Of a stretch of 57,818 nt of DNA, positions 6,530 through 52,835 are shown piece after piece. A program made the translations under genes and the position numbers. How positions within the stretch are numbered: position 1 is the first letter of the stretch; every line of letters begins with the position of its first letter. Origin of the DNA: a virus (Duplodnaviria > Caudoviricetes); the IMG/VR virus record IMGVR_UViG_3300023214_000063, positions 1 to 57,818 of that record; one strand, given 5' to 3'. The notes below the pieces were generated by a model. That model did not search any database, was not told the origin of the DNA, and saw only the letters and a program-made list of their open reading frames with translations.

Positions 6530-6603
6530 GGGAAGAACCATGAACCCGTTACACTGGACCAGCACCGGGAGCCAGAACCGGAAACTGAGTGGGGGAACGG
6601 GAC

Positions 6604-15180: not shown

Positions 15181-16173
15181 GTGACCGACGAACCAGATCG
15201 CGACGAAGAACAGCAGGTCGACAGCCTGGGCCTGACCCATCACCTGTCAGCGTCCCGCATGGGGATGTACCTGCGCTGTGGGATGCAGTACGCCTACCGC
15301 TACGTGGAAGGGCTGAAGGAACCGCCCGGTGTCAGCATGGCCTACGGCCGCGCCACCCACGAAACGCTGGCTTACGAACACAAGGAACAGATGCAGCGGG
15401 AGCTGCCATCAGCGGGGGAAGTCCGGGACTTCTTCGACAACCAGGTGGACCAGCACTTCGAGGAAATCGACCTGCGCCATCCGACGAACCAGGATTCACG
15501 CGGGAACCCGAAGTGGACGCGCGACGACGCGCACGACGCTGGCGGCCGGGCGCTCGCGGCGTACACGGAAAAGGTGGCTCCGGCTATCGAGCCGGTCACG
15601 GTCGAAGAACCGTTCAGCATCGACCTACCGGGCGGCGTGAAGCTGGTGGGGGCCATCGACCTGCGGGACAGCTCCCGCACCGTCATCGACCACAAGTCAG
15701 GGAAGAAGTCACCGATGGGGAACGCGGCTGCGTCGTCCGACCAGCTGACGATGTACGCCCTGCCGGACCTGGCCGACACAGCGCGCGAGCTGTACGAAGA
15801 CGGCATGACCGATGCCGACCTGGACGACGCGATGGGGAAGCACGGCCCGGTGGTCGAAGTGGCGCTGAACCACCTGACCGCGCTGAAGACGAAGTCGAAG
15901 CTGACGTGGCTTCCGTCAGCCCGGACGTGGCGCTCCTGGCGGACGCTCCAGCAGAAGGTCGTGCGGGTGGCGCACGGTATCCGGAATGAGAACTGGCACC
16001 CGGCACCGGAGTTCGCCTGGTGGTGCAGCGAGCGTAGCTGTGGGTTCTGGAACATCTGCCCACACGGCGCGAACGAAGTGCACCGGGTCATGTCGCCGCT
16101 GCATCAGATTGAAGTGGCGAAGCCGAAGGCGGCGAAGAAGAAGGCGGCGAAGAAGAAGGCGGCGAAGAAGTGA
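15181..16173 (+). CDS. PD-(D/E)XK RecB/Cas4-like exonuclease
   Basis: HLSASRM...C, GAID, IDHKSG, QLTMY and C-terminal C..C...C cluster; Lys/Ala tail. Confidence 0.85.
   Translation: MTDEPDRDEEQQVDSLGLTHHLSASRMGMYLRCGMQYAYRYVEGLKEPPGVSMAYGRATHETLAYEHKEQMQRELPSAGEVRDFFDNQVDQHFEEIDLRHPTNQDSRGNPKWTRDDAHDAGGRALAAYTEKVAPAIEPVTVEEPFSIDLPGGVKLVGAIDLRDSSRTVIDHKSGKKSPMGNAAASSDQLTMYALPDLADTARELYEDGMTDADLDDAMGKHGPVVEVALNHLTALKTKSKLTWLPSARTWRSWRTLQQKVVRVAHGIRNENWHPAPEFAWWCSERSCGFWNICPHGANEVHRVMSPLHQIEVAKPKAAKKKAAKKKAAKK
16126..16170 (+). repeat. Perfect 3x15 bp tandem repeat encoding KAAKK
   Basis: (AAGGCGGCGAAGAAG)3. Confidence 0.9.
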
Positions 16174-16493
16174 ACCTACGCGAGCCAGCCCAGGTCGTGG
16201 TTCCGGACCACGTACTGCCACGGCTGGAAGGGTGCATCGTCGTCGGCTGGTGGAACTTCCACCACCACACGGAGCTGCACATCATCCAGCGTGGCCGGTG
16301 CTGGCATCGCGACGCGCCCGACGTCGTCACTACTCGCGTCGTCAGGCACGTCAGGCTGAACAAGCTGACGGCCATGGACCGCGAGCGCTACGGCCTGGGC
16401 GACATGCGCAGGGCTATGAAGTACCTGGGAACCGACGACTACACATCGAAAATCACCATCTTGAAGTGGGGCACCGATGCCGAAGCGGACTGA
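16170..16493 (+). CDS. Hypothetical protein
   Basis: 107 aa, overlapping start/stop with neighbours. Confidence 0.55.
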   Translation: MNLREPAQVVVPDHVLPRLEGCIVVGWWNFHHHTELHIIQRGRCWHRDAPDVVTTRVVRHVRLNKLTAMDRERYGLGDMRRAMKYLGTDDYTSKITILKWGTDAEAD

Positions 16494-25400: not shown

Positions 25401-25631
25401 ATGACCATCGACGCGAACGACCTGCAGCAGCGCTTTCAGCATCACCCGCCCAGGAACGACGCCGACATCAAGGCGCACGAAGCCATCCGCGAGACGTGCC
25501 GTCAGGCGGCCGTCACCATCATGGGCCAGACTCCGGCGAGCCGGGAACAGTCCCTGGCCGTCACGAAGCTGGAAGAAGCCATGATGTGGGCGAACGCGGC
25601 CCTGGCGCGGAACCGGAGCGACGCCGACTGA
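25401..25631 (+). CDS. Acb2/Tad1-like hairpin protein (putative immune-signal sponge)
   Basis: RF.HHPP...SREQSLAVTKLEEAMMWANAALAR motif. Confidence 0.65.
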   Translation: MTIDANDLQQRFQHHPPRNDADIKAHEAIRETCRQAAVTIMGQTPASREQSLAVTKLEEAMMWANAALARNRSDAD

Positions 25632-36129: not shown

Positions 36130-39100
36130 ATGGGATTCCTGGACCGAATCACCGGAGCGCAGAACCTTCGTACCCCGTCGTCTTCGGGGCGCGTCCAGAA
36201 GGAAAGCCGCGTCTGGCCGGACATCTTCCTGCCGTACTGGCAGGAACGTGGAGCGCCGCGCGACGCGCAGGAACCAGAGCTGCGCGACTTCGTCGAAACG
36301 TACAACGTGGACGTGTGGGTCCGGCGCTGCGTTGAAATCCTGGCCGACTCCATCAGCCAGGTGCCGTTGCGCGTGAAGCGCCTGAAGGGCGACAAGCTGC
36401 TGCCGCCTGACCACCCGGCCGCGAAGGTGACCAGGAAGCCGAACCCGTTTCAGTCGTGGCCGGAGTTCGTGGCCGACTGGATGACGTTTATCGGACTGAC
36501 GGGCGATTCGTACGTGGAGCTGGTGCCGGACCCGCAGCAGCGCGCGTTCGAAGATGAACGCGGCAAGCGGCTACCGTCAGGTCCAGCGGAGCTGTACAAC
36601 CTGCGGCCAGACCGCGTGATGATTGTCCCCGACGCCCGAACCTTCATCGCTGGGTACTTCTACTTCGTGGAGCACAAAGGTAGCGCCGACCCCATCACGT
36701 TCAACGCCGACGACGTGTGGCACATGCGCTACCCGAACCCGCAGAACGACTACTACGGGGCATCGCCGCTCCGGGCTGCCACCAGGCCAGTAGTCACCGA
36801 TATCGAACAGGACAAGTACAGCACGTCGTTTTTTAAAAACAGCGCCATCCCGAACTGGATTCTGGAGACGGACAAGCAGCTGCGGAAGCAGGACACGGAA
36901 CGGCTGCGAAGCCAGATTGAGAGTGGGCACCAGCGCGAACCTGGATGGCACCGTCTGCTGATAGTCGATGACGGCATGAAGGCGAAGCAGCTGGGGCTGG
37001 GTCAGCAGGACATGGAGTTCACGAAGCAGCGCCGCTGGACGATGGGACAGATAGCCGGAGCCTTCGGTATCCCGCTGCCGTACCTGTCCACGGACGAACT
37101 GGGCGACACGAACTTCCGGGAAATCACCCTGATGTTCTGGAACATCACGCTGATTCCCAGGCTGCTGAAAATCGAAGCAGCCCTAAACTGCTTCGTCATG
37201 CCCAGGTTCGGACCCGACGTTCGAGCCGAATTCGACCTGGCCGACATCCGTGCCCTGAAGGCCGATGAAGCCGAAAAGGCACAGATGGGTGAAATTCTGA
37301 TCCGCTCTGGCCAGATGTCGCAGAACGAAGTCAGGCGGCGACTATGGAGCATGCCCGACACCCCGGACGGAGACATCGTCTACCTGCCGCTGTCCATCGC
37401 TCCGGCAGCTGGCCGTGGGATGGAGTCGGAAGCGGCCGAAGGCGCGGGAGCCGACCCGGAAGACGCGCCGGACGACGACGAACCCGACGACGAAGACCAG
37501 GACGACGAAGGCCAGGACGACACCCGCGACGACGACGAAGCCGAAGCGGGGCGCGCGAACGACGACCGACAGCGGGAACGAAAATCGGGAAAAGTCCCAG
37601 CCCCGGCGAGTGACCGGGGCGCGCGGGTCAAGGGACTGGACGACGGCGCGCTGTGGAAGTTCCTAGACGCCAGGCTCCAGGAACAGGAGCGCCGGGTCGA
37701 ACAGGTCGTCTTCCGGATGTTGGCGACCCAGGCGCAGAGCGTCAGCCAGCGCATCAGGCAGCTGGTCCAGAAGGGCGTCGGCGACCAGGTCGAAGCCGTC
37801 CTGTTCAACGTGGAAGAAGACGTGGCGGTCTTCGCGCCGCGCATGACCCAGGTGCTGACGGATACGTACAGCATTGTCCAGGGGGAAGTCTTCGCGGACC
37901 TGGGCGTCGGTGTGGAAATCGACACGACCCCAGGGCCGGAAGAACTCGAACGGCTCCGGAAGGTCGCGGCCGCCGATGTGCGGAGAATTTCAGAGACGAC
38001 GCGCGGGGCGCTCCGCGATTCGCTCCTGGAAGGCTTCGGGAACGGTGAAGACAGGGACGCGCTGCTGGGCCGTGTCTCTAGCGTCATCGGCGACATGGGA
38101 CCACGGGTCGCGCTGATAGCGCAGCAGGAAGCGGGCACGGCCATGTCCGTCGCCACTAACGACGGATTCCAGCGTGCGGGCATCGCGAAGTCCAGGTGGC
38201 TGACCCAGCGCGACGCCAGGGTCAGCGACGGGTCGAACAGCCCGCGCAACCATCGTCGACTGCACGGCGAAGTCCGGAAGGTGGGCGAGCGCTTCAGTAA
38301 CGGGCTGCTGTACCCGCGCGAGCCTAGTTCGTCGGCCGATGAAGCTGTCGGCTGTCGCTGCTTCCAGGCTCCGGTTCTAACGGGCGACCGTGGCGACCTA
38401 CCATCCGGTGGCGGGACCGTCACGCCGACGCCTGCGGAGCCGTTGCCGCCTGACCAGCCACTGCGACCACAGCGTCCGGAGCGCGAAGGCGAGCGCGCAG
38501 AGCGCCTGACGTGGGAACAGTTCGGCGGGAGCCTTCCGAGGGACGAAGCCAGGCGCGAACTGTTAGAAGACGCGCTGAATCGCCTGAACGTGATGGACCC
38601 GGCCGCCCGTGCGAAGTTCGTGGACGCTCTGGAGAAAATCCCGGACTTTAAATTCCGTGTGGCGACGAAGTCTACGAAGTCGCTGTCGGTCATGGGCAGG
38701 ATGAACGCGACGAAGCGGCGTGGCTACCCGCCAGACCTGAAGCGCCTGGACCTGCAGTTGATGCGGGAAAACCTGGAGTGGGGCGACTGGGTCACCGAAC
38801 ACAATGCAGAGTTCCGGTCCCTGCGGGAGCTGGTGAAGGCAGGCGACATCGACGAACAGGACTTCAATAACGCCATGAAGTTCTGGAAGCGAACGCACCC
38901 GGAGCCCGCGAAGTGGCGTCTAGCATCAGTCGACGAACTCGAAGAAGTCCTGGTCCACGAACTAGGCCATGCGCTCGACATGGACGCGGCAGTGGGTGAC
39001 CAGACGTTCGGCCTGGCGCAGCGCTTCCGCGACGATGGGATGCTGGGCGAGTGGCAGAAGGCGTACTGGAACGGCGACGTGACGGAGGTTTCGCCAGGCG

Positions 39101-39324
39101 TGTTTAAGCCGAACCGTGGGGCGACGCGGGAAGGGGCGTTCGCCTACGGAACCACGAAGCCGGAAGAAGCCGTAGCAGAAGCATTCCGCATGTACTTCAC
39201 CGGGAACATCGACAGCGTCGGATATGATGGCGTCATCAGCGCCACCCGCATGACTGCGGAGGAATGGCGCGAGCGATACCCACAGCTGGCCCAGTGGATC
39301 GAAAACGTCCTGGGTGTGAACTGA
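36130..39324 (+). CDS. HK97-type portal fused to MuF (gp7-like) and a C-terminal HEXXH metallopeptidase domain
   Basis: Portal motifs (PNPFQ, LRPDRV, YYGASP), acidic linker, MuF motif (WLT..D.RV...H..L.GE...NGL.YP...GCRC), then HELGHALD...EAVAEAF. Confidence 0.88.
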   Translation: MGFLDRITGAQNLRTPSSSGRVQKESRVWPDIFLPYWQERGAPRDAQEPELRDFVETYNVDVWVRRCVEILADSISQVPLRVKRLKGDKLLPPDHPAAKVTRKPNPFQSWPEFVADWMTFIGLTGDSYVELVPDPQQRAFEDERGKRLPSGPAELYNLRPDRVMIVPDARTFIAGYFYFVEHKGSADPITFNADDVWHMRYPNPQNDYYGASPLRAATRPVVTDIEQDKYSTSFFKNSAIPNWILETDKQLRKQDTERLRSQIESGHQREPGWHRLLIVDDGMKAKQLGLGQQDMEFTKQRRWTMGQIAGAFGIPLPYLSTDELGDTNFREITLMFWNITLIPRLLKIEAALNCFVMPRFGPDVRAEFDLADIRALKADEAEKAQMGEILIRSGQMSQNEVRRRLWSMPDTPDGDIVYLPLSIAPAAGRGMESEAAEGAGADPEDAPDDDEPDDEDQDDEGQDDTRDDDEAEAGRANDDRQRERKSGKVPAPASDRGARVKGLDDGALWKFLDARLQEQERRVEQVVFRMLATQAQSVSQRIRQLVQKGVGDQVEAVLFNVEEDVAVFAPRMTQVLTDTYSIVQGEVFADLGVGVEIDTTPGPEELERLRKVAAADVRRISETTRGALRDSLLEGFGNGEDRDALLGRVSSVIGDMGPRVALIAQQEAGTAMSVATNDGFQRAGIAKSRWLTQRDARVSDGSNSPRNHRRLHGEVRKVGERFSNGLLYPREPSSSADEAVGCRCFQAPVLTGDRGDLPSGGGTVTPTPAEPLPPDQPLRPQRPEREGERAERLTWEQFGGSLPRDEARRELLEDALNRLNVMDPAARAKFVDALEKIPDFKFRVATKSTKSLSVMGRMNATKRRGYPPDLKRLDLQLMRENLEWGDWVTEHNAEFRSLRELVKAGDIDEQDFNNAMKFWKRTHPEPAKWRLASVDELEEVLVHELGHALDMDAAVGDQTFGLAQRFRDDGMLGEWQKAYWNGDVTEVSPGVFKPNRGATREGAFAYGTTKPEEAVAEAFRMYFTGNIDSVGYDGVISATRMTAEEWRERYPQLAQWIENVLGVN

Positions 39325-39572: not shown

Positions 39573-40841
39573 ATGTCTACGCCGGTAACGAAAACAGCCA
39601 GAGTCCTGAAGGTGGGCGGCGATGACGGGCGCTTCGTAGCGCGCGCCAGCGAAGCCACCGTGGACCGTGATGGCGACATCGTCCACCCGGAAGGCTTCCT
39701 GAAAGGGATGCCCGACTACATGGCCGGGGGTGGCGTCATTTCGGCGTTCCACAATTGGCACGACTTCGCCATCGGGAAGATGGTGGATTTCGAAATCGAC
39801 CAGCAGCGGTTCGACTTCGAAGGGATGTGGGCACCGACCGCACGCGGCCAGGAAGCGCGGGTGCTCTACGACGGTGGTTTCCAGCGGTCGTTTTCCGTCG
39901 GCATGGACCCCCTGCGAGCGGAGCCCAGGTTCGACGACGATACGGGCCAGCTGATGGGGTTCGAGTTCTTCGAGCAGAACCTACTGGAAGTTGCGGCTGT
40001 CCTGGTGCCCGCCCACGCCGGTGCCCATCTGCTGGGCTACGGGATGAAGAACTACGGCCTGATTCCGACGATGAAGCGGGCCGGGCTCCTGAAGGGCGCG
40101 GACATCCAGTCGGTGCTGGTGCCCAGGCGGAAGATGAACCGGGAACAGGCGCAGCTGTTCGTGCGCGAACACGGATTCACGCCGGACTCCTGTAAGCACG
40201 TCGGCGATGAGTTCTACCGGTTCGAGCAGTTCGAAGCGCCGGAAGGTTCGGAGCTGAAGACCATTCCATGGCTGGACGAATCGAAGCTGGTCATGGTCGT
40301 TCCGAAGTCGGAAGGTGTGGAGCCCCAGGAAACACGGCCGCCAGGAATCGACCAGCGCCAGGCGCGAGCCGGGTACGCCGCGAGCACCGACCGACCGACC
40401 GACCGACCGGACTGCCTGGTCGTCACCACGAAGGCCACGGGGCTGTCGGATCGGGACATCCGGGACATGCTCGAAATGGCCGTGAAGGATGTGGAGCCGG
40501 AATTCGACTGGCTGTGGGTCGTGGCCGTCTTCGATGACGTCGTGGTCTACGAACTGGGCCAGAAGGGCGAGCGGGACCGGCTGTTCGAGCGCGGATATGA
40601 ACTGGACGCAGATGTGGTCACGATGGATTCAGCACGGCAGGAAGTTCGACGCCGTGTCGTGTTCGAGCCGGTGACCAGCAGCAGTGGCCCGATTAGGATG
40701 CAGGCCGCGCAGGAGCTACAATCCGGCGTCAAGCGGCTGGGTGGTATGGTGACCCGGCTGGAGCAGAAGTTATTGACCGACGAACTGGGACAGACCATCA
40801 GGCGCGCTCGCCGCGTCACTGACAGGCTGGAGCGCCAGTAG
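39573..40841 (+). CDS. HK97-family prohead protease with C-terminal extension
   Basis: DRDGDIV, FHN..AIG, SFSVG and LLEVAAV..PA; lies between portal and capsid. Confidence 0.88.
   Translation: MSTPVTKTARVLKVGGDDGRFVARASEATVDRDGDIVHPEGFLKGMPDYMAGGGVISAFHNWHDFAIGKMVDFEIDQQRFDFEGMWAPTARGQEARVLYDGGFQRSFSVGMDPLRAEPRFDDDTGQLMGFEFFEQNLLEVAAVLVPAHAGAHLLGYGMKNYGLIPTMKRAGLLKGADIQSVLVPRRKMNREQAQLFVREHGFTPDSCKHVGDEFYRFEQFEAPEGSELKTIPWLDESKLVMVVPKSEGVEPQETRPPGIDQRQARAGYAASTDRPTDRPDCLVVTTKATGLSDRDIRDMLEMAVKDVEPEFDWLWVVAVFDDVVVYELGQKGERDRLFERGYELDADVVTMDSARQEVRRRVVFEPVTSSSGPIRMQAAQELQSGVKRLGGMVTRLEQKLLTDELGQTIRRARRVTDRLERQ
40386..40409 (+). repeat. (ACCG)6 tetranucleotide microsatellite inside the protease gene
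   Basis: Six perfect units encoding TDRPTDRP. Confidence 0.9.
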
Positions 40842-40879: not shown

Positions 40880-42454
40880 ATGAGTGATTCGACGCAAGTC
40901 GACCACACGCCGCAGGAGCTTCAGGACGCGGTACGCGAGCTGAAGTCCCTGACGGGTCGTATCGAGCAGCTGGAAGCGAGTTACGACGAACGCAACGGGA
41001 AGGGCGCGTCCGACGACGCGAAGCGCAAGGGCGACCCCATGGCACCGTTCGCGGAGCAGATGGAGTCGCTGGGCGAGCAGCTGAAGGATGTGCAGCAGAA
41101 GCTGCTGGACGGCGACAAGGCGCGGCGGACGAACGACGACGGCAGCCCGAAGGAACCGCAGCGCAAGGGCGAGCCGAATACCGACGACGCGCTGAAGGCG
41201 GCAGCCGACCGCATCGCAGGCGAGGGTGGCGGATTCAATCCGTTCGCCATCCGGGGGAAGAAGTACGGCTGGGCGAACAAGCCGGCGCTGAAGCAGCTGG
41301 CGGCGATGCCCACGGAGGAAGTCCGGCAGATCATGTCGGACGGCGAGTATGACGAGTTCAAGTCCGTCATGGAGCTGTCCGACCGCGTGTACCTGCTGGG
41401 CGCGCTCCTGAACGCCGATCCGCGCGACCCGACGGACGTGCGGACCACGAAGCTGTACGCCCAGCTGGACCGGAAGCTGAAGGCGCTGGACACGGCAGAG
41501 TCGGGTGGCGGTGCGGAGTGGATTCCCACCGGCTTCAGCTCGCAGCTGATCGACCGTATCGACCTGGAACTGGTCGTCGCCCAGGTCTTCCCGCGATTCA
41601 CGATGCCGACGAACCCCTACACCCTGCCGGTGGAAGGCGGGCACGTCGAAGCGTATCTGACCGGGGAGTCGACCGGAGACGGTGACGACGACAAGGTGAC
41701 GGCGGACGACGCCGGTACGCAGAAGGTGACGTACGACGCGGAGAAGCTGGCCGTGCGGTCGCTCGCGTCGTACGAAATCGAGGAAGACAGCATCATTCCG
41801 GTGCTGCCCTACATGCAGCGGAAGCTGGTGACGGGCCTGGCGCGGGGTGTCGACGACGCCATCATCAACGGCGACACGTCGGGCGCCCACCAGGACTCCG
41901 ACGTGACGGCCCCGACGGATCGGCGGAAGGCGTGGGACGGGCTCCGTGCGCTCGCGCTCGCGGACGCGAAAATCGACCTGTCCACCTTCAACGTCGAAAA
42001 CATCCGCAGCATCCGCAGCGCGATGGGCAAGTACGCCGCGCAGCCGATGGACAACGTGTGGTTCTTCGGCGTCCAGGGTCACATCCTGCTGCTGTCGCTG
42101 AAGGACAGCCAGAACAATCCGGTGGTCATCACCCTGGACAAGCTGGGGCCGCAGGCCACCATCCTGACCGGGATGCTGGGTTCGCTGGACGGTTCGCCGG
42201 TTCTCATTTCGGAGTTCGTCCGGGAGAACCTGAACGCCAGCGGCGTGTACGACGGGACGACCACCACGAAGAAGGTGGCTCTGAACGTCAACCGCCAGTG
42301 CTACAGCATGGGCGACCGTCGCCGCGTGATGGTGGAGACGGACCGCGACATCGAGCGCCAGCAGCACATCATCGTCGCGTCGTGGCGCGGCGACTTCCAG
42401 TGCTACTTCGACACCACGTCGGAAGACTGCGTCGGCCTGGGGTACAACTTCTAA
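40880..42454 (+). CDS. Major capsid protein (HK97 fold) with N-terminal scaffold/delta region
   Basis: Coiled-coil N-terminus, GGGAEWIPTGFS, AIINGD and GSLDGSPV. Confidence 0.92.
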   Translation: MSDSTQVDHTPQELQDAVRELKSLTGRIEQLEASYDERNGKGASDDAKRKGDPMAPFAEQMESLGEQLKDVQQKLLDGDKARRTNDDGSPKEPQRKGEPNTDDALKAAADRIAGEGGGFNPFAIRGKKYGWANKPALKQLAAMPTEEVRQIMSDGEYDEFKSVMELSDRVYLLGALLNADPRDPTDVRTTKLYAQLDRKLKALDTAESGGGAEWIPTGFSSQLIDRIDLELVVAQVFPRFTMPTNPYTLPVEGGHVEAYLTGESTGDGDDDKVTADDAGTQKVTYDAEKLAVRSLASYEIEEDSIIPVLPYMQRKLVTGLARGVDDAIINGDTSGAHQDSDVTAPTDRRKAWDGLRALALADAKIDLSTFNVENIRSIRSAMGKYAAQPMDNVWFFGVQGHILLLSLKDSQNNPVVITLDKLGPQATILTGMLGSLDGSPVLISEFVRENLNASGVYDGTTTTKKVALNVNRQCYSMGDRRRVMVETDRDIERQQHIIVASWRGDFQCYFDTTSEDCVGLGYNF

Positions 42455-42542: not shown

Positions 42543-43196
42543 ATGGGGGGAGCCACCCGCATCGTGGGATGCATGACCGCGTACGGCGACGACGTGTCGC
42601 TGCTGACGCGGTCTTTGTCGTCTCTGGCGGAATTCGCGGACCGGGTCGTCGTCGGTGTCGGTCGATACCGGGGTCACGAATCGGTCCCGGAAGAAGCGGT
42701 CGTCCAGACCATCGTTAACGCGCGCAAGTTCGACGCGGACGTCATCGTCGAAGACGTGTGGGACGAACGCGAAGCACGTACGCGAGTTGCGGCCGAAGCG
42801 TCGCCTGGCGACTGGTGTTTATGGGCAGACGCGGATGAAGTCTGGACGGGTGACCCGGCCCGGCTGCGGGCGCTGCTACCGGAGTTCGACCCCTGCGTCT
42901 TCGTGCGCTCGAAGCGCCCGCTGCGTCCGGACCTGTTCCCGCTGTGGGTGCCGAAGATGTATCGGTACGAAGTCGGCCACAGGTTCGTACACGACTACCT
43001 GGTGGTGAATGCCCACGGGCAGGCGGTTACCTACGTGCACGGGTCGCCACCGAAGAACAGGCCGCACGGAGATGGCTGCGAGCTGGACCCAGCCGTCGGC
43101 CAGATAGAGCACTACCGGGAAGAACGCGACCAGGTCCGCACGTCCATGACGGGCCGCTACCAGGTGAAGCGCCTTGACGATGGATACCCAGCCTGA
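42543..43196 (+). CDS. Glycosyltransferase, GT2/GT-A fold
   Basis: RSLSSL..FADRVVV, WCLWADADE (DxD) and IEHY. Confidence 0.75.
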   Translation: MGGATRIVGCMTAYGDDVSLLTRSLSSLAEFADRVVVGVGRYRGHESVPEEAVVQTIVNARKFDADVIVEDVWDEREARTRVAAEASPGDWCLWADADEVWTGDPARLRALLPEFDPCVFVRSKRPLRPDLFPLWVPKMYRYEVGHRFVHDYLVVNAHGQAVTYVHGSPPKNRPHGDGCELDPAVGQIEHYREERDQVRTSMTGRYQVKRLDDGYPA

Positions 43197-43860
43197 CGTC
43201 GCTGCCATCATCAGCGCGTACCGGCCACACCCGGCACAGCTCGCGCGGCAGCTCCGAAGCCTGAAGGCCCAGGAAGGCGTGGTCGTCCACCCGTTCATCC
43301 TCGAAGTCGGAGCCGAAGGTCCGTCCGGATGGCAGCTACCACCGGACGTCGACACCTGGTCGGAAGTCCACGTCTGCAGTTCCCGCGTGAACCTTCCGAT
43401 GGCGTGGAACTATCTGTGCATGGTGGCGTGGCCGGACTGGTGCGTCATCGCGAACACGGACGACTGGTGGGAGCCGGACGGCATCCGAAAGCTGGTGGAC
43501 CTGGCCGAAGACCAGGGCTCCAGCTTTGCTTATGGCGACGTCATGTGCCACGACGGGGAGCGGAACCCCTACAGCGGGGTGACGAAGCCGCACACGGTCA
43601 GCTCGATACGCGAGTCCGTGGACATCGGCTGCTGCGCCCTGTTCGCTCGCGAACGTCTGCTGGAGTTAGGCGGGTTCGACACCACCCTGGAAATCGCAGC
43701 CGACTGGGACGCATGGATTAAGCTGTCCGCCGACGGCATCGCCTACACGGCGGATATCGTCGGTCACTTCACTGTTCGTTCGGAGTCGCTATCGCACGCT
43801 GATCCGGCTGCACTTCGGGGCGAGCTGGCCAGAGTCCGGAGACGGTATAGGCATGGGTAA
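43180..43860 (+). CDS. Glycosyltransferase family 2
   Basis: IISAY, AWN, IANTDD and GGFDTTL..AADWDAWIKL. Confidence 0.82.
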   Translation: MDTQPDVAAIISAYRPHPAQLARQLRSLKAQEGVVVHPFILEVGAEGPSGWQLPPDVDTWSEVHVCSSRVNLPMAWNYLCMVAWPDWCVIANTDDWWEPDGIRKLVDLAEDQGSSFAYGDVMCHDGERNPYSGVTKPHTVSSIRESVDIGCCALFARERLLELGGFDTTLEIAADWDAWIKLSADGIAYTADIVGHFTVRSESLSHADPAALRGELARVRRRYRHG

Positions 43861-45916
43861 AAAGCTGCGCTACATGGGGCCGTTCCCGAAGTACCGTGGT
43901 CACCGGATGGTGGTGGAGCGTGGCGGCACATGCACCGTCGACGACGACCTGGCTGCGCAGCTGGTCGAAAAGAACCCCGGCTGGTGGGAAGACCTGACCA
44001 GCCCGGCCTACCAGGACGACGGGAAGCTGGAGCGATGGAATCCCGGTCCGACCCCGACGCGGAAGAAGGGGAGTGCCATAGACGCCCTGGTCGTCATCGT
44101 CCTGACGTGGAACCAGTGGAGCTACACGCGCCGCTGCCTGCCGTCTATCGAGTCAGAGCGACCCATGCGGGTCATCGTGGTGGACAACAACTCCACAGAC
44201 GGGACGCGCGAGCTGCTGGAACAGCTCCCTGTGGACGTAGAGCAGCCCCAGGGCCGCGTCGGCGTGGCTGCAGCCCTGAACGTAGGGCTGGAAGCTGCGC
44301 GAAGCTACACGCCGCGCTACGTGGCCATCCTGAACAATGACGTGGTGCTGCCGAAGGGCTATCTGGACGGCCTGGTCGCGATGCTGGAAGCCGACCCCAG
44401 CATGGGCATGGCGACCGGACTGCAGAGCATCCCAGGCGGACGGGGGGTGTCGAAGCCGGAGCTGGTGAAGAACCAGCAGGGCGAGCCCATCGACGACCGC
44501 GTCATCAGCGGCGACATGTCTGCCTTTGTTCTGGACTGGCGCGCTGTCCTGAAGGTGGGCACGTTCGACGAACGGTTCCGGCCGCGCTACATCGAAGACA
44601 ATGACTACGTGCACCGTCTGACCGTCGCGGGGTTCGAGCCGTACCGCACGGGCAGGTTCGTTTACGAACACTTCCACATGACGACCTATCGGGAGAATCC
44701 ACACCTAGCGAAGCGCCGGGAGCTGGAGCTGCGACGGAACGTGGAACGGTACGTGGAGAAATGGGGCGCGGCTCCGACGTCGTGCCAGCAGTGGCGTGAA
44801 GTGAAGACGTACCCTGACGACTGGACGTACGACGGGGGAGCCGACGAACCCCTGTGCGAGCCGGAGCCGGTGAAGGCCCGGCACGTAGCCATCGTTCAGC
44901 CGGGGCGACTGGGTGACATCGTCGCGACGCTCCCGCTGGCCCGCGTCCTGGGTCGCCGTAAGTTCAGGGTTCACTGGTACGCCCGCGAGCACTACGCCAG
45001 CATCTTCGAGCATGCGCAGTCGGTGCACGAAGTTCACGCCCTGCCGATGACGGGGGAGTCACCGTTCGACGGACTGGACGAACTCCGGGACCAGGTAGAA
45101 GCGGAGCGCTACGAATACGTCTTCAACCCGTGCATATCTGACGGGAAGTTCCAGGAGTTCGAGCGGTCGCCGTTGCCCTACGCGGATTTCCTGCAGGCGT
45201 CCGTAGGCGTCCAGTGGCCGAAGCGTCCGGAGTTCAAATACAAGCGCGACGACCGGGCGCTGGCGCGGCAGCTCGCCGGACGTGACGAACGGCCCGGCAT
45301 CCTGGTGGCTCCGTTCGGAATCAGCACGCCGGTCGTCCTGTCCGGCGAGCATAAGCAGGCCCTGAAGCGGATGTCGGAAGACTACGACCTGGCCATCTGC
45401 ACGGACGGGCAGACGTGGCCGGACCTACCTGGTGCCCGCAAAATCGGCAGGGTTCGCCCGCTGTCTCTGCTGGGGGCCATCGTCGGGGAATTCGACCTGG
45501 TCATCTGTGTGTCGACCAGCATTGTCTGGTTTGCCTACGCTGCTCGCGTTCCGACCATCCAGCTGCTGCCGTCGAAACCGTGGCGCTCCGGCATCAAGGT
45601 GGAACACGACTTCCAGAAGTACGGCGCGCACCAGTGGCATGACACGGACTTCGACGTGGTCGACTTCTTCCCGAACCACCAGACCGGAGACGCCTTCGAA
45701 GCGCTCGCGCGCGGCAGGCTCGAACACGCGGCGTTCGACGAACTGTTCCTGCGGGACTTTCCATTCCCAAAGCGGGAACCGGGTAAGGTTGCCGTGTTCT
45801 ACCCCGGACCCAGCAGCATCCATCCGGACGCAGGCATGCTGGCTACCGGCGTTAACATGCTGCCCAGGAAAACCGCCCGGCAGCTGATAGAAAAGGGAGT
45901 CGTGTTCGATGTATGA
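43853..45916 (+). CDS. GT2-GT9 fusion glycosyltransferase with small terminal domains
   Basis: GT2 part (VVDNNSTDGT, ILNNDV, FDERF..YIEDND) and GT9-like part (RLGDIV.TLP, DLVICVST..VW.A.A..VPT). Confidence 0.85.
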   Translation: MGKKLRYMGPFPKYRGHRMVVERGGTCTVDDDLAAQLVEKNPGWWEDLTSPAYQDDGKLERWNPGPTPTRKKGSAIDALVVIVLTWNQWSYTRRCLPSIESERPMRVIVVDNNSTDGTRELLEQLPVDVEQPQGRVGVAAALNVGLEAARSYTPRYVAILNNDVVLPKGYLDGLVAMLEADPSMGMATGLQSIPGGRGVSKPELVKNQQGEPIDDRVISGDMSAFVLDWRAVLKVGTFDERFRPRYIEDNDYVHRLTVAGFEPYRTGRFVYEHFHMTTYRENPHLAKRRELELRRNVERYVEKWGAAPTSCQQWREVKTYPDDWTYDGGADEPLCEPEPVKARHVAIVQPGRLGDIVATLPLARVLGRRKFRVHWYAREHYASIFEHAQSVHEVHALPMTGESPFDGLDELRDQVEAERYEYVFNPCISDGKFQEFERSPLPYADFLQASVGVQWPKRPEFKYKRDDRALARQLAGRDERPGILVAPFGISTPVVLSGEHKQALKRMSEDYDLAICTDGQTWPDLPGARKIGRVRPLSLLGAIVGEFDLVICVSTSIVWFAYAARVPTIQLLPSKPWRSGIKVEHDFQKYGAHQWHDTDFDVVDFFPNHQTGDAFEALARGRLEHAAFDELFLRDFPFPKREPGKVAVFYPGPSSIHPDAGMLATGVNMLPRKTARQLIEKGVVFDV

Positions 45917-46859
45917 CCGCATCGTCGTTACGGGTGGCGCTGGCTACGTCGGCCGCGTCACCGTGCCGCTGATCCTGCGCACCTTCCCAGGCGCACAGGT
46001 CGTCGTCATCGACAACTTCTGGCAGCGCCAGGAACCGCCGTTCGACTGGTTCAGTGATGCGTCGTGGCGTGACCGAATCGAGCTGCGCCAGGGCAACGTG
46101 GTGGAGTCCATCGACGACAGCTGGGGCGGCACGGATATCGTCGTCCACCTGGCCGGACTGGTCGGCGCTCCTGCCTGCGAAGCGAACCCGGAGCTGGCGG
46201 AATCCTGGAACTACGACAGCGCCTACAACCTCGCCTACAACTGGCGGCCGAAGCGGGTGGTGAACGCGAGCACCGGCAGCGTGTACGGGGCCATTGAAGG
46301 CGTGTGCACGGAGGAAAGCGACACGAACCCGCTGTCCATCTACGGGAAGTCGAAGCTGGCAGCGGAGCGCGTGCTGTGGGAACGCCTGGGTGGCATTCAC
46401 CTTCGGTTCGCCACGGGGTACGGGTGCAGCCCGAAGATGCGGCTGGATACGCTGCCGAACACCTTTGCCTGGGAAGCGCTCGCCGAAGGAAACCTGGTCC
46501 TGTACCAGCGTGACGCCCGGCGAACCTTCGTCCACGTCGAAGACATGGCGCGAGCCCTGGTTCACGCGATGGTCAACTATGAAAAGATGCAGCCGGGCGT
46601 GTTCAACGTCGGCAGCCATGACGGGAACATGACGAAGCAGGAGCTGGCGGACCTGGTCGCCGCGCACGCTCCGGACGGGCTGCGCATCTTTCACGGAGAC
46701 GGGGCTGACCCGGACCAGCGGGACTACGAAGTCAGCTACGGCAAGTTCACGGACACCGGCTGGGCTCCGGTGTGGACGATGGAGCGCGGGGTCCGGTCGC
46801 TGCTCGCGGCGCTGTCGTCGCTTCGGATTCGTGACCGGTATCGGAACAGTGGGGGATGA
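45909..46859 (+). CDS. NAD-dependent NDP-sugar epimerase/dehydratase (extended SDR)
   Basis: VTGGAGYVG, HLAGLVGAPAC, ASTGSVYG, YGKSK and RTFVHVED. Confidence 0.9.
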   Translation: MYDRIVVTGGAGYVGRVTVPLILRTFPGAQVVVIDNFWQRQEPPFDWFSDASWRDRIELRQGNVVESIDDSWGGTDIVVHLAGLVGAPACEANPELAESWNYDSAYNLAYNWRPKRVVNASTGSVYGAIEGVCTEESDTNPLSIYGKSKLAAERVLWERLGGIHLRFATGYGCSPKMRLDTLPNTFAWEALAEGNLVLYQRDARRTFVHVEDMARALVHAMVNYEKMQPGVFNVGSHDGNMTKQELADLVAAHAPDGLRIFHGDGADPDQRDYEVSYGKFTDTGWAPVWTMERGVRSLLAALSSLRIRDRYRNSGG

Positions 46860-46860
46860 C

Positions 46861-47853
46861 GTGGAGCTGAAGGGGAAGTCGGTAGCCGTCACTGGTGCTA
46901 CGGGATTCGTGGGTCGCCACCTGATCCAGCGCCTACTGGAAGCTGACGTGGAAAGCATCCATGTGGTGACGCGGAATGTGTCGCAGGCTGCGGCAGTGCT
47001 TCACGACGCCGTGGGGGTGGACCGCAGGCTGCTCGCGGTTCACTGCGACATCGAACGCCAGCTGGGACTGCTGGGCGCGCTGAAGGGGCTGCAGGTTGAT
47101 GTCCTGTTTCATCTGGCCGCGTACTACGGTGGCCTGGGCATCACGCTGGCCGAACCGGCTTCCATTTTCACGAAGAATGTGCGCATGGGCCTGAACGTCC
47201 TGGAAGCCAGCGCGGCCGCTGAAGTGGACAAGGTCGTGTTCTGCGGGACGGCATGTAGCTACCCTGGCGGCCTAGCGCCGGAGCCGATGGCGGAAGGCGA
47301 CTTCTGGTCTGGCCAGGTGCACGGCAGCGTGGAAGCGTACGGGGTGGCGAAGAAGGCGATGGAAGCCGGAGCCCGTGCCTTCGCGAACCAGCACGACATG
47401 CGAGCTGTGCACGTCGTACCGGCGAACCTTTACGGCCCGCACGACGACTTCGGCGACTATCGCAGTCACGTCGTAGCGGCGCTGGTCGCGAAGGCCGTGG
47501 CCGCATCGGAGTCCGGGAAGCCGATGAAGGTGTGGGGCTCCGGAGCGCCGGTCCGTGAGTTCATGTACGTGGATGACTGTGCGGCCGGTCTGGTGGCGGC
47601 AGCGGAGTCGTACGACGACATGGACGCGCCGTTGAACATCGGCACTGGCGTAGGCACGTCGATTCGCGAGCTGGTCGACGCCATCGCGGACGCTGTCGGC
47701 GGGCTCGAAGTGGAGTGGGAGTCGGACAAGCCGGACGGAGCGCCGCATAAGGTTCTGGACGTGACGAAGGCGAACGACCTGGGGTGGGCCGCAGGCGTGT
47801 CGCTCCAGGACGGAATCCGAAGCACGGTCAACTGGTACAGGGTGAACCGATGA
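46861..47853 (+). CDS. GDP-L-fucose synthase-like epimerase/reductase
   Basis: VTGATGFVG, HLAA..GG, GTACSYP, YGVAK, NLYGPHD, SHVVAAL, VWGSG.P.REF.YVDD and KPDG. Confidence 0.88.
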   Translation: MELKGKSVAVTGATGFVGRHLIQRLLEADVESIHVVTRNVSQAAAVLHDAVGVDRRLLAVHCDIERQLGLLGALKGLQVDVLFHLAAYYGGLGITLAEPASIFTKNVRMGLNVLEASAAAEVDKVVFCGTACSYPGGLAPEPMAEGDFWSGQVHGSVEAYGVAKKAMEAGARAFANQHDMRAVHVVPANLYGPHDDFGDYRSHVVAALVAKAVAASESGKPMKVWGSGAPVREFMYVDDCAAGLVAAAESYDDMDAPLNIGTGVGTSIRELVDAIADAVGGLEVEWESDKPDGAPHKVLDVTKANDLGWAAGVSLQDGIRSTVNWYRVNR

Positions 47854-49088
47854 AGCCGTACGTGACGATGTCGACATGCCGAAGGTGTGGCGGCGAAGAC
47901 CTGGTCCGGCAGTTCCGGATGGACGACGTGGCGATGACGGGGTACTTCCCCCTGCCGGGCGAGTCCGTCGCATCGGGTCCGCTGACCGTCATGCTGTGCG
48001 CGGACTGCATGCTGATGCAGCTGCGCGAGTCCTACCAGGTAGAGCTGATGTACACCGACACCTACGGCTACCACAGCTCGCTGAACGGGGCGATGGTGCG
48101 TCACCTGCAGGGACTGGCCGCAGAAGCGCTGCAGTCCTGCCACCTAGTTCCCGGCGACGTCGTGGTGGACGTGGGTGGAAACGACGGCACGCTACTGGAA
48201 GCGTTCCCGTCCTGGCTCGAACGCTGGAACGTCGACCCGCTGGCGGACCGATTCATGCCGAAGGAAACCGACATCCGGTGCCTGCCGGAGTTCTTCGACG
48301 ACAACGCAGTGGAAGCCATCGGTGAAGGCCGTGTGTCCGTTCTGACGTCCGTCGCGATGTTCTACGACCTGGACGACCCGGTAGCCTTTGCGCGCTCTGT
48401 GCGGCGACTCCTGCGCCCTGGTGGGGCATGGTTCTGCCAGGTCCAGGACACCGAACGGATGATGCGGGACGGGTTCTACGACACGCTCTGTCACGAACAC
48501 ATCGACTACTACCTGGTCCGCGACCTGGTCGACATCGCACGGCGGGCGGGCATGGAAGTGGTGTCGGTCAGGCGGAACGACTCGAACGGTGGCAGCTTCC
48601 GGGTGGAGATTCGAAACCACGAATCTCCGTCCCACGCGGTAGAGCGTGTCTGCATCGCAGAAGCGAAGCGTGTGGGCTCCACGTTCGACGACTACGTGAA
48701 GACCTGCCAGACGTACTTCGCGCGGGTCGTTCGCCACCGGGAAATCGTCCGTAACTTCCTGAATGCGGCGAAGGCAGAAGGGAAGACCGTCGCGGCCCTG
48801 GGTGCATCGACCAGGGGGAACGTCGTTCTGCAGTGGTGCGGGGTGACGCCGGACGACATCGTCGGAGTGGGGGAAATCAATCGAGACAAGTTCGGGCGCG
48901 TCACGCCTGGAACCGGAATCGGAATCAAGCCGGAAGGTGACATCATCGCCGCGCAGCCGGACTACCTGATGGTCCTGCCGTGGCACTTCCGCGCTGGGTT
49001 CGAGCGGCTGCACGGCCGTCTGTGTACCGACGACTGGAAGCCGCAGCTGGTCTTCCCGCTACCGGAGTTCGAGCTGTGGCCCGCATGA
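47850..49088 (+). CDS. NDP-hexose C-methyltransferase (Zn-binding N-domain, SAM domain, C-domain)
   Basis: CRRCG...CADC..MQL, YGYHSS, DVGGNDGTLL, YDTLCHEH, NGGS, GASTRGN and PDYLMVLPWHF. Confidence 0.88.
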   Translation: MKPYVTMSTCRRCGGEDLVRQFRMDDVAMTGYFPLPGESVASGPLTVMLCADCMLMQLRESYQVELMYTDTYGYHSSLNGAMVRHLQGLAAEALQSCHLVPGDVVVDVGGNDGTLLEAFPSWLERWNVDPLADRFMPKETDIRCLPEFFDDNAVEAIGEGRVSVLTSVAMFYDLDDPVAFARSVRRLLRPGGAWFCQVQDTERMMRDGFYDTLCHEHIDYYLVRDLVDIARRAGMEVVSVRRNDSNGGSFRVEIRNHESPSHAVERVCIAEAKRVGSTFDDYVKTCQTYFARVVRHREIVRNFLNAAKAEGKTVAALGASTRGNVVLQWCGVTPDDIVGVGEINRDKFGRVTPGTGIGIKPEGDIIAAQPDYLMVLPWHFRAGFERLHGRLCTDDWKPQLVFPLPEFELWPA

Positions 49089-49717
49089 CGAACGAACGGG
49101 CGTACGAATACGCCTTCACCTTTCGGGCTGTCGCTGACCACCTGGCCGGGCTCGAACCGGACGAACCCGTGCGGCTGCTGGATGTGGGCACGGCAGGCAG
49201 CCAGCTGCCGAACAACCTGGCCGACGTGTGGGTGGACCAGGTCGTCTGCTGCGACCCTGACTGCCGTGGGTTCGTCCGGATGCCCTGGCAGAACATCACG
49301 TACGTGGAAGCGACGGTCCAGGACTACGCGATGACGGAGCCGGAGCCGTTCGACATCGTTACCTGTGTCAGCACCCTGGAGCATGCGGAAGACGTGGAGT
49401 CGGCGATAGCTGCCATCGTCGACTTGATGAAGCCAGCCGGGCTACTGGTGGTGACGGTTCCTTACCACCCGCAGCGCACGCGGCTGTTCCCGGACCAGCA
49501 GGAGTTCACAGACCTGCGCCCGCTCCACGCCTGGTCGCGCATGTTCGAACGCCACGAACTGCTGCATGACCAGGAAGACGAACTGTACCTGCGGGCCTGG
49601 CGCTGGGTGAACGACGAAGATGGGGTGCCGGTGACGTTCGAGCGCGAGCGATGCCGGGCCGTAGACGACGACGCCCAGGACGACAACATCATCTGCATGA
49701 CATGGACGAGGCCATGA
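49085..49717 (+). CDS. Class I SAM-dependent methyltransferase
   Basis: NERAYEY, LLDVGTAG, FDIVTCVSTLEH and MKPAGLLVVTVP. Confidence 0.82.
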   Translation: MTNERAYEYAFTFRAVADHLAGLEPDEPVRLLDVGTAGSQLPNNLADVWVDQVVCCDPDCRGFVRMPWQNITYVEATVQDYAMTEPEPFDIVTCVSTLEHAEDVESAIAAIVDLMKPAGLLVVTVPYHPQRTRLFPDQQEFTDLRPLHAWSRMFERHELLHDQEDELYLRAWRWVNDEDGVPVTFERERCRAVDDDAQDDNIICMTWTRP

Positions 49718-49953
49718 AGAAGTCACTGGGGGAGCTGGTCGACGAACTGGCCATCACGAATTTGAAGATGTGGCACTTGGAAGACCGACGCCGCGACACG
49801 ACGCTGCCGGATTCGGAGCGCCTGAAGGCAGCGGACGCGCTGTCGCCGCTGAACGCGAAGCGCCATCGTCTGATGGAAGCTATCGACGCCCTGGTGCCAC
49901 AGGAAGATGCGCACCAGAAGGTGCCCGTGTACGAAGGCGAGCCGGTCGGCTAG
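49714..49953 (+). CDS. DUF4254-like small helical protein
   Basis: LVDELAITNLKMWHLED..R...LN.KR..L..AID; this pattern is associated with GT9/sugar loci. Confidence 0.6.
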   Translation: MKKSLGELVDELAITNLKMWHLEDRRRDTTLPDSERLKAADALSPLNAKRHRLMEAIDALVPQEDAHQKVPVYEGEPVG

Positions 49954-49997
49954 GACGGCCAGGGGCTCGCCGCTACTATAGGCGCGGAGGTAACACC

Positions 49998-50258
49998 ATG
50001 GCGAAAGTCAGCATGAAGACCGTGTACTACGACGGCGACAGCGCGCAGGTTCACCCGGCCGGGTTCACCCTGCAGCCAGGGAAGAACGTGCTGTCGAAGC
50101 CGATGGCAGAGCTGGCGTGCAAGCTGGTGGAAGGCTGCACGATGGGCACCGGCCCGAAGGGGGTCACGTCGTCGAAGAAGAAGAAGGCGACGAAGAAGTC
50201 CGCCAGCTCGAAGTCCACGAAGAAGAAGAAGTCCACGAAAAAGAAGAAGAAGAAGTAG
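49998..50258 (+). CDS. Small head-module protein with Lys/Ser/Thr-rich tail
   Basis: GGAGG RBS; N-domain similar to the GT fusion C-terminus; tail SSKKKKATKKSASSKSTKKKKSTKKKKKK. Confidence 0.65.
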   Translation: MAKVSMKTVYYDGDSAQVHPAGFTLQPGKNVLSKPMAELACKLVEGCTMGTGPKGVTSSKKKKATKKSASSKSTKKKKSTKKKKKK

Positions 50259-50267: not shown

Positions 50268-50837
50268 GTGGCGCTGGTCACGCTGGAAAAGACGCTGCAG
50301 TACCTGAAGGAATCGGAAGACCGCGACGACGTGGTCCAGGCGATTCTGGATGGTGTCTCTGCGGAGTTCGAGTCCCGAACTAACCGTGTGTTTGCCCAAG
50401 CGAACTACACGGACGCGCTGGACGGTGGGTGCAGCTACGTGCTGGTAGAGAACCCGCCCATCATCAGCGTGACGTCGGTGCACGAATCGAACTCGATACC
50501 CGCCGTCTTCAACGCGACGACCCTGGTGGACGCCGACACGTACGTCAGCTACGCAGGCGAAGGTCGCGTCCAGCTCCTGGGCGCTCGCGCACGGTTCGCT
50601 CGCGGTTATCAGAACGTCCAGGTGATTTACTCCGGTGGCTGGGTGACGATTCCTGCGGACGTCCAGCTGGCGGTCATGCGCTGGGTGGGGCACATCTGGA
50701 AGGAAGAAGATACGGCGCGCTTCGGCCTGCAGGGTCGGTCGTTCGAGGGGCAGCAGGCCCAGTTCGTCCCGCCACCGGAAGTTCCACCCCAAATCATGCG
50801 GGTCATCCGGCTGTATCGCCGACCGTCGACGGGGTAG
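50268..50837 (+). CDS. Head-tail connector (gp6/gp15-like)
   Basis: ALVTLE...YLK...D..., PPIISVTSV and Y.GGW..IPADVQLAV. Confidence 0.82.
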   Translation: MALVTLEKTLQYLKESEDRDDVVQAILDGVSAEFESRTNRVFAQANYTDALDGGCSYVLVENPPIISVTSVHESNSIPAVFNATTLVDADTYVSYAGEGRVQLLGARARFARGYQNVQVIYSGGWVTIPADVQLAVMRWVGHIWKEEDTARFGLQGRSFEGQQAQFVPPPEVPPQIMRVIRLYRRPSTG

Positions 50838-51851: not shown

Positions 51852-52835
51852 GTGCACGTTGACTTCTACACGCCACATAGCGGCGCGGGCCGCGAGTTCG
51901 GGTACAGCACCTTCACCGACGCCGTCCGACGTCACTGGCTGGAGCTGGGCCACACCATCGGTGACGATGCGCCGGTCCGCGTAGCGTTCTGCCACCCGAA
52001 GTCGTTTCAGCGCGACGAACGGCCTACGGCGTTGTTCAGCATGTACGAAGCGCCGGACATGCCACGGGAGTATGTGGAGCCGCTGAACCAGGCTGACGCG
52101 GTCATCGTGCCCACGAAGTTCTGCCGGGATATCTTCAAACGGAACGGAGTCACCAGGCCCATCCACCTGTGCCCGTTAGGTATCGACGGCGACCTGTTCT
52201 ACCCTGACCCGGCGAAGACGCCACCGGCTCCCCCGTACCGGCTGCTATGGCTAGGGGCTCCGGACTTGCGCAAGGGGTGGGACATCTTCGCGCGTGGCTT
52301 CATGGCCGCGTTCAGTCACAGCGACGACGACGTCAGGGTCACGTTCAAAACGTCGGCGAAGCACACAGAGCAATTCGAAGAATTGGTGCCGGGGGTCACG
52401 TTCGACTGCCGACGCCTGCCGCGTGAAGAACTCGCCGACCTGTATCGACGTCACCACATCTTCGTGACGACGACGCGCGGCGAAGGATATGGGCTCCCCC
52501 CACTGGAAGCGATGGGAACTGGCTCCCTCGTCATCGCTCCAGTGGCGGGGGGCCTGTCTGATTTCGTAGTGCCGGGCCGCGCGCTGACGTTGAAGACGAA
52601 GAAGCGTCGCGTACACTTCGGGGTGCCGACCACGGCCGATGAAGTGAAGCACGGTAGCCTGGTGTCGCAGCTGAAGCGGGCCGTGCGAAACTACGACCAG
52701 TTTAGGGGCACGCGGGAGCGGGCAGTAGAATGGGTGCACGCGAATCGAACGTGGAGCCACACAGCGCGGAGACTTCAAGAAATAACGGGAGCTATTTTCG
52801 GTCCAACTGGGGGAGCCGGTAGGGACGCGAAATGA
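51852..52835 (+). CDS. Glycosyltransferase family 4 (GT-B)
   Basis: PLGID, RKGWD, LADLY and EGYGLPPLEAMG (E-X7-E). Confidence 0.88.
   Translation: MHVDFYTPHSGAGREFGYSTFTDAVRRHWLELGHTIGDDAPVRVAFCHPKSFQRDERPTALFSMYEAPDMPREYVEPLNQADAVIVPTKFCRDIFKRNGVTRPIHLCPLGIDGDLFYPDPAKTPPAPPYRLLWLGAPDLRKGWDIFARGFMAAFSHSDDDVRVTFKTSAKHTEQFEELVPGVTFDCRRLPREELADLYRRHHIFVTTTRGEGYGLPPLEAMGTGSLVIAPVAGGLSDFVVPGRALTLKTKKRRVHFGVPTTADEVKHGSLVSQLKRAVRNYDQFRGTRERAVEWVHANRTWSHTARRLQEITGAIFGPTGGAGRDAK

Follow-up and report, generated by a model that had tools for sequence, protein, structure and literature searches.

The IMG/VR virus record IMGVR_UViG_3300023214_000063 (Duplodnaviria; Caudoviricetes), analyzed over its full 57,818 nucleotides and called the window below, encodes a 687-amino acid (aa) multidomain glycosyltransferase (GT) in a group of sugar-modifying genes located between the genes for the major capsid protein and the head-tail adaptor. 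We propose that the first 52 residues of this enzyme form a head-module domain of the DUF7302 type and serve to hold the enzyme on the capsid protein, a reading to which we assign a probability of about 45%. A preliminary description of the window had suggested that the enzyme carries captured capsid-binding modules, the clearest at its C terminus, where it resembles a Lys-rich 86-aa protein, and a looser one at its N terminus. Both open reading frames (ORFs) were placed correctly (43853–45916 and 49998–50258), and the general idea of a capsid-addressing module on the GT is supported for the N-terminal segment by family matches, by a comparable fusion in a related phage, and by a model of the complex with the capsid protein; it is not supported by way of the C-terminal tail or the 86-aa protein. 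A capsid-addressing tag is, on these results, plausible for the N terminus of the enzyme and not for its C terminus. The analysis consists throughout of sequence comparison and structure prediction on an uncultured IMG/VR record (57.8 kb, 65% G+C, estimated completeness 56%), in which the + strand carries all called genes, so that all window coordinates given here refer to that strand.

The 687-aa enzyme (43853..45916; ORF with domain matches) begins with the small module (residues 1–52, 43853..44008), the candidate capsid-docking tag, which is followed by a Pro/Gly/Thr-rich linker that extends to residue 78. The GT2 catalytic domain then occupies residues ∼79–300 (44087..44752) and matches PF00535 over residues 81–197 with 65.2 bits (E = 8.7e-18; gathering score 23.3). 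In an alignment of seven GT2 proteins, the columns of Asp-111, Asn-112, Ser-114, Asp-116, Asn-161, and Asp-163 are invariant, and the N-terminal module is absent from all six of the nearest GT2 relatives (P0002–P0007). Further downstream, residues 345–399 (44885..45049) match positions 2–58 of the 320-position heptosyltransferase I model TIGR02193 (32.6 bits, E = 4.8e-8, cut-off 185.3), and this half of the protein has no Pfam match at E ≤ 10. The earlier label "GT2-GT9" is therefore sound in its first part, but its second part corresponds to a 55-residue motif. An AlphaFold2 model of the full-length enzyme had a predicted local distance difference test (pLDDT) score of 44; the GT2 domain was the sole confidently modeled part, and the GT9-like half scored below 50. 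No full-length relative was found in phages (megablast, tblastn), viral contigs, or metagenome contigs, a word-index search with the enzyme gave matches confined to the GT2 domain, and no homologues were found for the C-terminal half, which is otherwise an orphan after residue 399.

The evidence for a separate N-terminal module begins with profile matches. The DUF7302 model (PF23976) aligned to residues ∼20–52 with 22.7 bits (E = 1.3e-4) when a 68-aa fragment was searched and with 19.4 bits when the whole protein was searched. When the entire record was searched in six frames, this segment was the only match to DUF7302 (22 bits, E = 1e-5), and it was likewise the only match to phrog_3101 (E = 6.6e-5; 0.0016 in a separate comparison) and to phrog_748, annotated as "head-tail connector protein" (E = 1.9e-4; 0.011 in a separate comparison). 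DUF7302, PHROG 748, and PHROG 3101 are families of phage proteins of ∼60–70 aa, and the segment matches the strand-helix-strand core of all three profiles. The members found in relatives of this phage lie in the head module. The present case differs in that the domain leads a 687-aa enzyme instead of standing alone and in that its DUF7302 score is below the curated cut-off, so on sequence grounds the segment is best described as near threshold: like the DUF7302 family, not a certified member of it. An hhalign comparison with the family members of five related phages (described below) aligned 29 columns in the expected register (E = 0.0015, probability 17%). The link to the family depends on this alignment together with the Pfam and PHROG profiles and is partly transitive. 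The DUF7444 profile gave no matches, and a full-text literature search retrieved no published mention of DUF7302, DUF2635, DUF7443, DUF7444, DUF7092, or DUF7210.

A skeptical explanation of these matches is that there is no common module, that they are noise on a short leader of ordinary composition, and that the enzyme is a plain fused GT. In its favor, every match is under the curated cut-off, a leave-one-out test fails for this segment (see below), and control genomes also match these short models at E ≤ 10. We consider this explanation improbable since all three libraries pick out these 30 residues and nothing else in the record (E = 1e-5 to 2e-4 per record), the hhalign alignment has the same register, the segment folds with a pLDDT of 81–83 when modeled in a complex, and a linker separates the extension from the GT2 domain, an arrangement also seen in the related phage L004.

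Phages with related capsid genes provided the second line of evidence. The window capsid protein finds five viral and eight metagenome loci at 33–43% identity, which, after duplicates were taken into account, left six distinct relatives with usable flanks. Four of these encode a stand-alone small protein, one (L004) encodes a fused form, and one (L011) has neither. The small head-module proteins consist of a ∼50-residue N-terminal domain followed by a basic tail; they are 131 aa long in L007 (4615–5010), 70 aa in L008 (12240–12452), 124 aa in L006 (18166–18540), and 76 aa in L012 (7802–8032, with the same protein in L005), and in L006 and L012 the gene is directly upstream of the adaptor gene. 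The DUF7302 model scores 14 bits on those of L007 and L008. When hidden Markov models (HMMs) were built with one member left out and searched against 1735 six-frame ORFs from the window and the six related loci, the L007, L008, L012, L006, and L004 members were each recovered as the top non-training match (E = 4e-8 to 5e-3). Further searches for members of this small family gave self matches only, and tblastn with the L012 protein found nothing.

The fused form in L004 bears most directly on the enzyme of the window. The first gene after the L004 capsid gene encodes a 329-aa GT2 protein (PF00535, E = 2.3e-20) that is extended at its N terminus by ∼55 residues, and an HMM of the four stand-alone proteins ranked this extension first among the 1735 ORFs (E = 3.9e-4). 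The GT2 domains of the L004 and window enzymes are 25% identical, and the L004 protein represents a second, separate fusion of the small domain to a GT2.

The third line of evidence comes from structure prediction. AlphaFold2 modeled the L008 protein from six aligned rows with a mean pLDDT of 76, rising to 80–88 over residues 1–50, as four short strands, a helix (residues 36–45), and a final strand. Foldseek found no match to this family model among viral models at E ≤ 0.001; the viral listing at probabilities of 0.8–1.0 contained many small uncharacterized phage proteins, including a DUF7443 protein, a "lamina-associated polypeptide 2-like" protein, and a 114-aa "virion structural protein" of Achromobacter phage AchV4. 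Complex modeling with the capsid protein, an approach named in the preliminary description, was run for the N-terminal module with two copies of capsid residues 195–524 (seven-row alignment) and GT residues 1–56 (six-row alignment). The module was placed on the capsid protein with scores of 0.63, 0.57, and 0.63, compared with 0.00 in all three controls, and the runs agreed in ≥97% of contacts, with a partner pLDDT of 81–83. Of 157 solved complexes, 116 attain the mark used for such scores, as do 2 of 215 mismatched pairs; the counts are only a rough guide here because our runs used their own alignments and two capsid copies. The predicted contacts connect GT residues 10–22 and 40–41 with capsid residues 334–338, 357–364, 453–456, and 511–514. 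This one controlled model supports the proposal that the N-terminal module may bind the capsid protein.

Several points weigh against a capsid-tethering domain. The phage is uncultured and is known here from sequence alone. All family matches of the N-terminal segment are below or near threshold (for DUF7302, 22.7 bits compared with a gathering score of 24.9), and they are not independent, since the three profile libraries probably describe one family. The segment is the one of six members that a leave-one-out profile failed to recover, and the probability of its hhalign alignment was 17%. The members of the small family were chosen partly by eye before they were tested, and DUF7302 misses the L004, L006, and L012 proteins, which makes the chain of relatedness transitive. 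The 86-aa protein of the window itself shows no sequence link to the family. No clear fold relative was found among known structures (best Z score 5.3; nothing clear from Foldseek on the PDB). Finally, the complex score is the model's own confidence for a single pair, capsid and N-terminal module, and, because the capsid protein was truncated and modeled as two free copies, a real lattice may bury the predicted site or have it already taken.

These points leave room for a reading in which the N-terminal module is truly related to the head-module domain but does not address the capsid. It could be a relic of a fusion or an oligomerization or chaperone-type piece, or its partner could be DNA, terminase, portal, or neck, with the enzymes of the cluster acting on the host envelope or on another virion protein. 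The polybasic tails of the stand-alone forms suggest DNA contact, the stand-alone genes abut the adaptor gene in three phages, the full-text search found no published function for DUF7302 or phrog_748 proteins, and gene position by itself is no proof of a virion acceptor. Nonetheless, we regard this reading as rather unlikely: the capsid complex model passes its controls, two separate GT fusions whose GT2 domains are only 25% identical argue for selection, and GT islands persist beside capsid genes in the relatives.

A capsid-binding module at the other end of the enzyme was suggested by the likeness between the C-terminal 45 residues of the enzyme (643–687, 45779..45913), the segment aligned in the preliminary description, and the N-terminal domain of the 86-aa protein. 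The alignment exists: BLASTP paired GT residues 648–680 with residues 9–45 of the 86-aa protein (13 of 37 identities, 4 gaps, E = 8e-4 for the single pair), and the local score of 44 was reached in 1 of 2000 shuffles. The proposed homology of the two segments as a shared domain did not hold up in wider comparisons. Run against all 72 window proteins (17,600 aa), the same 48-aa query scored 46 on an unrelated 422-aa protein (39573) compared with 44 on the GT; the higher score, the best that chance gave the 86-aa protein, came from a "DGD..VHPEGF" stretch of the 422-aa protein. With the C-terminal segment as query against the 1735 ORFs, phmmer gave the 86-aa protein an E value of 0.26, no better than decoys, and with the 86-aa protein as query the GT came fifth among the non-self matches (E = 3.1). 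Apart from the GT itself, an exhaustive HMMER search with a profile of all three segments retrieved only three repetitive proteins, in short pieces, from 1.84 billion proteins, and tblastn of the C-terminal segment on phages gave only matches with E ≥ 6. In hhalign, the family of the relatives met the C-terminal segment over 14 columns in the expected register (E = 0.062) and the 86-aa protein over five columns without a meaningful alignment (E = 0.11), and a profile of the C-terminal segment paired with the 86-aa protein met the family profile in the wrong register (E = 0.051). Neither the 86-aa protein nor the C-terminal tail aligns to the small-head-protein family.

An explanation in which the C-terminal 45 residues and the 86-aa N-terminal domain are homologous capsid-binding modules, with the N-terminal segment of the GT as a third and looser copy, can still cite the pair alignment and its shuffle score, the terminal position of both segments, a low-confidence strand-strand-helix at residues 645–680 of the full-length model, and the 14 columns aligned by hhalign in the expected register. 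The 86-aa protein also shares its place and build with the Lys-tailed proteins of the relatives, its own structural look-alikes are small viral proteins with an N-terminal domain and then a Rho_N-type part, and those of the family model are small uncharacterized viral proteins, one of them "lamina-associated polypeptide 2-like." We nevertheless judge this explanation quite unlikely in light of the higher-scoring unrelated match in the window, the phmmer and profile results, and the lack of a third member among 1.84 billion proteins. In addition, GT residues 345–687 form a stretch of 343 residues, near the 320-position length of the heptosyltransferase model. The tail may therefore be nothing more than the last part of a GT-B fold, or it may be a small strand-strand-helix appendage. 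Since the earlier reader was free to choose from the whole window, the pair alignment is real as letters but not beyond chance, and the sequence comparisons indicate that the likeness of the C-terminal tail to the 86-aa protein is most likely coincidental. The N terminus of the GT, described earlier as a looser copy, gave no BLAST alignment to the 86-aa protein; what stands for this segment is its better supported match to phage-head protein families.

The 86-aa protein (49998..50258) deserves attention independently of the GT. Its gene is directly upstream of the adaptor gene, and the protein comprises a ∼50-residue N-terminal domain and a 36-residue Lys/Ser/Thr tail with 18 Lys, 7 Ser, and 5 Thr. 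With a GGAGG Shine-Dalgarno sequence upstream and a G+C fraction at third codon positions of 0.93, in addition to this tail composition, the ORF appears to be a real gene. Its position and build match those of the L006 and L012 Lys-tailed proteins, to which it has no sequence link. Pfam and PHROG scans assigned it to no family, no homologues of near length were found, and tblastn on phages gave only matches with E ≥ 0.6; DUF7092 reached only 14–17 bits on it and had no matches in the relatives. A low-confidence Atlas model (pLDDT 0.51) is similar to viral "Rho_N family" proteins of ∼110 aa in their N-terminal part (TM score ∼0.5), a weak hint that the same architecture of N-terminal domain plus tail may be present. 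When the 86-aa N-terminal domain, the L006 protein, and the N-terminal module of the GT were each compared with their own capsid proteins, the scores were at shuffle level, being reached by 168, 361, and 462 of 500 shuffles, respectively, which speaks against their being copies of the N-terminal arm of the capsid protein.

Among solved structures, the best match to the family model was a primase subdomain (Z = 5.3). A possible lead is YqbF of the Bacillus subtilis skin prophage (PDB 2HJQ), which superimposed with a Z score of 3.8 and a root mean square deviation of 5.4 Å over 54 residues at 20% identity. The YqbF gene follows the capsid gene and the YqbF domain is followed by a Rho_N/HeH-type part, and the Atlas look-alikes of the 86-aa protein have this same build of a domain and then a Rho_N-type part. 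The Pfam YqbF model (PF14553) had no match in the five records searched, YqbF was absent from the Foldseek PDB listing, and the modeled likeness is weak and serves as a lead only. As working analogies, the T5 decoration protein pb10 and lambda gpFI each combine a small capsid-binding domain, a linker, and a second functional part, and pb10 anchors on a T5-type capsid. The window capsid protein is distantly T5-like, and the cargo in the present case would be an enzyme; no sequence or fold similarity to pb10 or gpFI was found, and no direct comparison was made.

The genes around the enzyme form a sugar island (42543–49953) that lies after the capsid gene (40880) and ahead of the adaptor gene (50268). 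It opens with a 217-aa protein weakly resembling GT2 enzymes (42543..43196; Glyco_tranf_2_4 at 17.9 bits, under the cut-off; phrog_7009, glycosyltransferase, E = 6.6e-6) and a 228-aa GT2 glycosyltransferase (43174..43860; PF00535 at 27.2 bits compared with a cut-off of 23.3). After the 687-aa enzyme come two genes for NAD-dependent sugar-nucleotide epimerases/reductases (45909..47853; PF01370, E = 1e-25 and 3.8e-51), the second of which resembles GDP-L-fucose synthase (NF047922, 207.7 bits, below the 500-bit cut-off), and genes for a 434-aa sugar C-methyltransferase (Methyltransf_14, _13, and _23) and a second, 245-aa S-adenosylmethionine-dependent methyltransferase (Methyltransf_11 and _23) at 47784..49717. 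A search with the C-methyltransferase found no related loci. The last gene of the island encodes a small DUF4254 protein (49651..49953; PF14063 at 31.2 bits compared with a cut-off of 27); DUF4254 proteins accompany GT9 genes in bacteria. Outside the island, a GT4 glycosyltransferase gene (51852..52835; PF20706, PF13692, and PF00534; phrog_2170, E = 2.2e-26) lies between the tail-terminator and tail-tube genes, with "GT4 in conflict systems" (PF20706, E = 5e-10) as its best Pfam match. Its position suggests that the tail is glycosylated too, and we presume that this GT4 is part of the same virion-glycosylation system as the island.

The arrangement taken as the mark of virion glycosylation, GT genes embedded among virion structural genes, is present both after the capsid gene and, for the GT4, at the terminator and tube genes. 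Moreover, the capsid relatives L004, L006, and L011 have differing GT sets at the equivalent place. L004 carries an island of two GT2 genes, two methyltransferase genes, and a UDP-glucose dehydrogenase gene; L006 has three GT1/GT4 genes directly before its Lys-tailed protein; and L011 encodes a 798-aa GT2-GT2-TPR fusion (4260–6656) in its neck region. Judged from its sequence, the TPR fusion may be another way of giving a GT of a virion island a protein-binding part. These three relatives fit the earlier suggestion that the cluster is phage-adapted, and the sugar island of the window fits a swappable, phage-maintained virion-glycosylation island.

The closest known system is that of mycobacteriophages Che8, Corndog, and Myrna, which reportedly have glycosylated virions; it is said to include glycosyltransferase and methyltransferase genes among the virion structural genes, with capsid and tail proteins as the presumed acceptors. 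The work (Freeman et al. 2023, Cell Host Microbe 31:1216) is cited in PMC12582341. The window resembles that system in having GT and methyltransferase genes amid structural genes, and is known here from its genes alone; the two differ in host and in their enzymes, which are unrelated. To our knowledge, mycobacteriophages are the only phages in which virion glycosylation has been measured, no docking module has been described for their system, and how virion-glycosylating enzymes find their acceptors is unexplained.

Taken as a mechanism, the capsid-tethering proposal would work as follows. The enzyme consists of a DUF7302/phrog_748-type domain of ∼50 residues, a flexible linker, a GT2 domain, and a divergent GT-B half with a heptosyltransferase-like opening. 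The small domain would be a portable module with the major capsid protein as its docking site. In the capsid-related phages it is found alone ahead of a lysine-rich tail, encoded close behind the capsid genes or directly ahead of the adaptor gene. Fusion to the domain would hold the transferase on proheads or capsids, where the products of the island (three GT genes, two epimerases, and two methyltransferases), together with the GT4 encoded by the tube gene, would build a methylated deoxyhexose-type glycan on the virion. We infer the capsid as the acceptor of this glycan, as well as the nature of the sugar.

A broader proposition is that tailed phages use the DUF7302-type domain as a portable tag for capsid docking, polybasic-tailed when alone and fused to GTs in at least two lineages, and that the enzyme is capsid-tethered and possibly virion-associated; we consider this on balance doubtful. 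If true, it would be the first rule for how phage virion glycosylation is targeted, and the display of enzymes on capsids would have a precedent in nature. A docking module on the enzyme would amount to a testable targeting mechanism and a first function for the widespread tiny proteins encoded after capsid genes, and cargo could be placed on capsids with it as a short natural tag. The comparison also holds a lesson for annotation in that the most persuasive-looking alignment proved to be the unreliable one.

Among the remaining late genes of the window, the terminase gene starts at 34565 and is followed by a portal fused to a MuF-like domain in a single 1064-aa ORF (36130–39324). The 422-aa protein that scored in the window scan is encoded between the portal and capsid genes (39573–40841) and has no family match; the protein at the corresponding position in L004 is a Peptidase_S78 prohead protease. 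The major capsid protein (40880..42454; 524 aa; Pfam Phage_capsid, E = 1.4e-13) has the HK97 fold and a long N-terminal extension. Its closest named relatives by tblastn are those of Microcystis phage Mvi-JY20 (31% identity) and T5-like phages (∼25%), and no prophage relatives of it were found in prokaryote genomes. The head-tail adaptor gene (50268..50837; phrog_442, E = 4.3e-27) is followed by the tail-terminator gene, which starts at 51353, and the tail-tube gene, which starts at 52832.

Some other genes of the relatives and of the window were also of interest. In L006, a complete 63-kb relative, a NUMOD3/Vsr-type homing-endonuclease-like gene (11111–11965) is located directly behind the capsid gene. 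Paralogous proteins of ∼120–150 aa are encoded after the capsid region of L006 (13127–13905), L007 (5014–5786), and L008 (12453–12908); they share a "...NVV.R.EGS.DN..WF...SE.GGT..." pattern and a weak F5/8 type C match and are, by sequence, candidate decoration proteins. In the window, a tyrosine recombinase (14099–14965; Phage_integrase, E = 2e-41) is encoded ahead of a PD-(D/E)XK nuclease and a 568-aa RecT-domain protein (15181–18183); the phage, which may be temperate, has its own recombination pair. A 76-aa protein (25401–25631) contains an Acb2/Tad1 hairpin domain (PF24729, E = 1.9e-17), which makes it a candidate sponge of cyclic-nucleotide defense signals.

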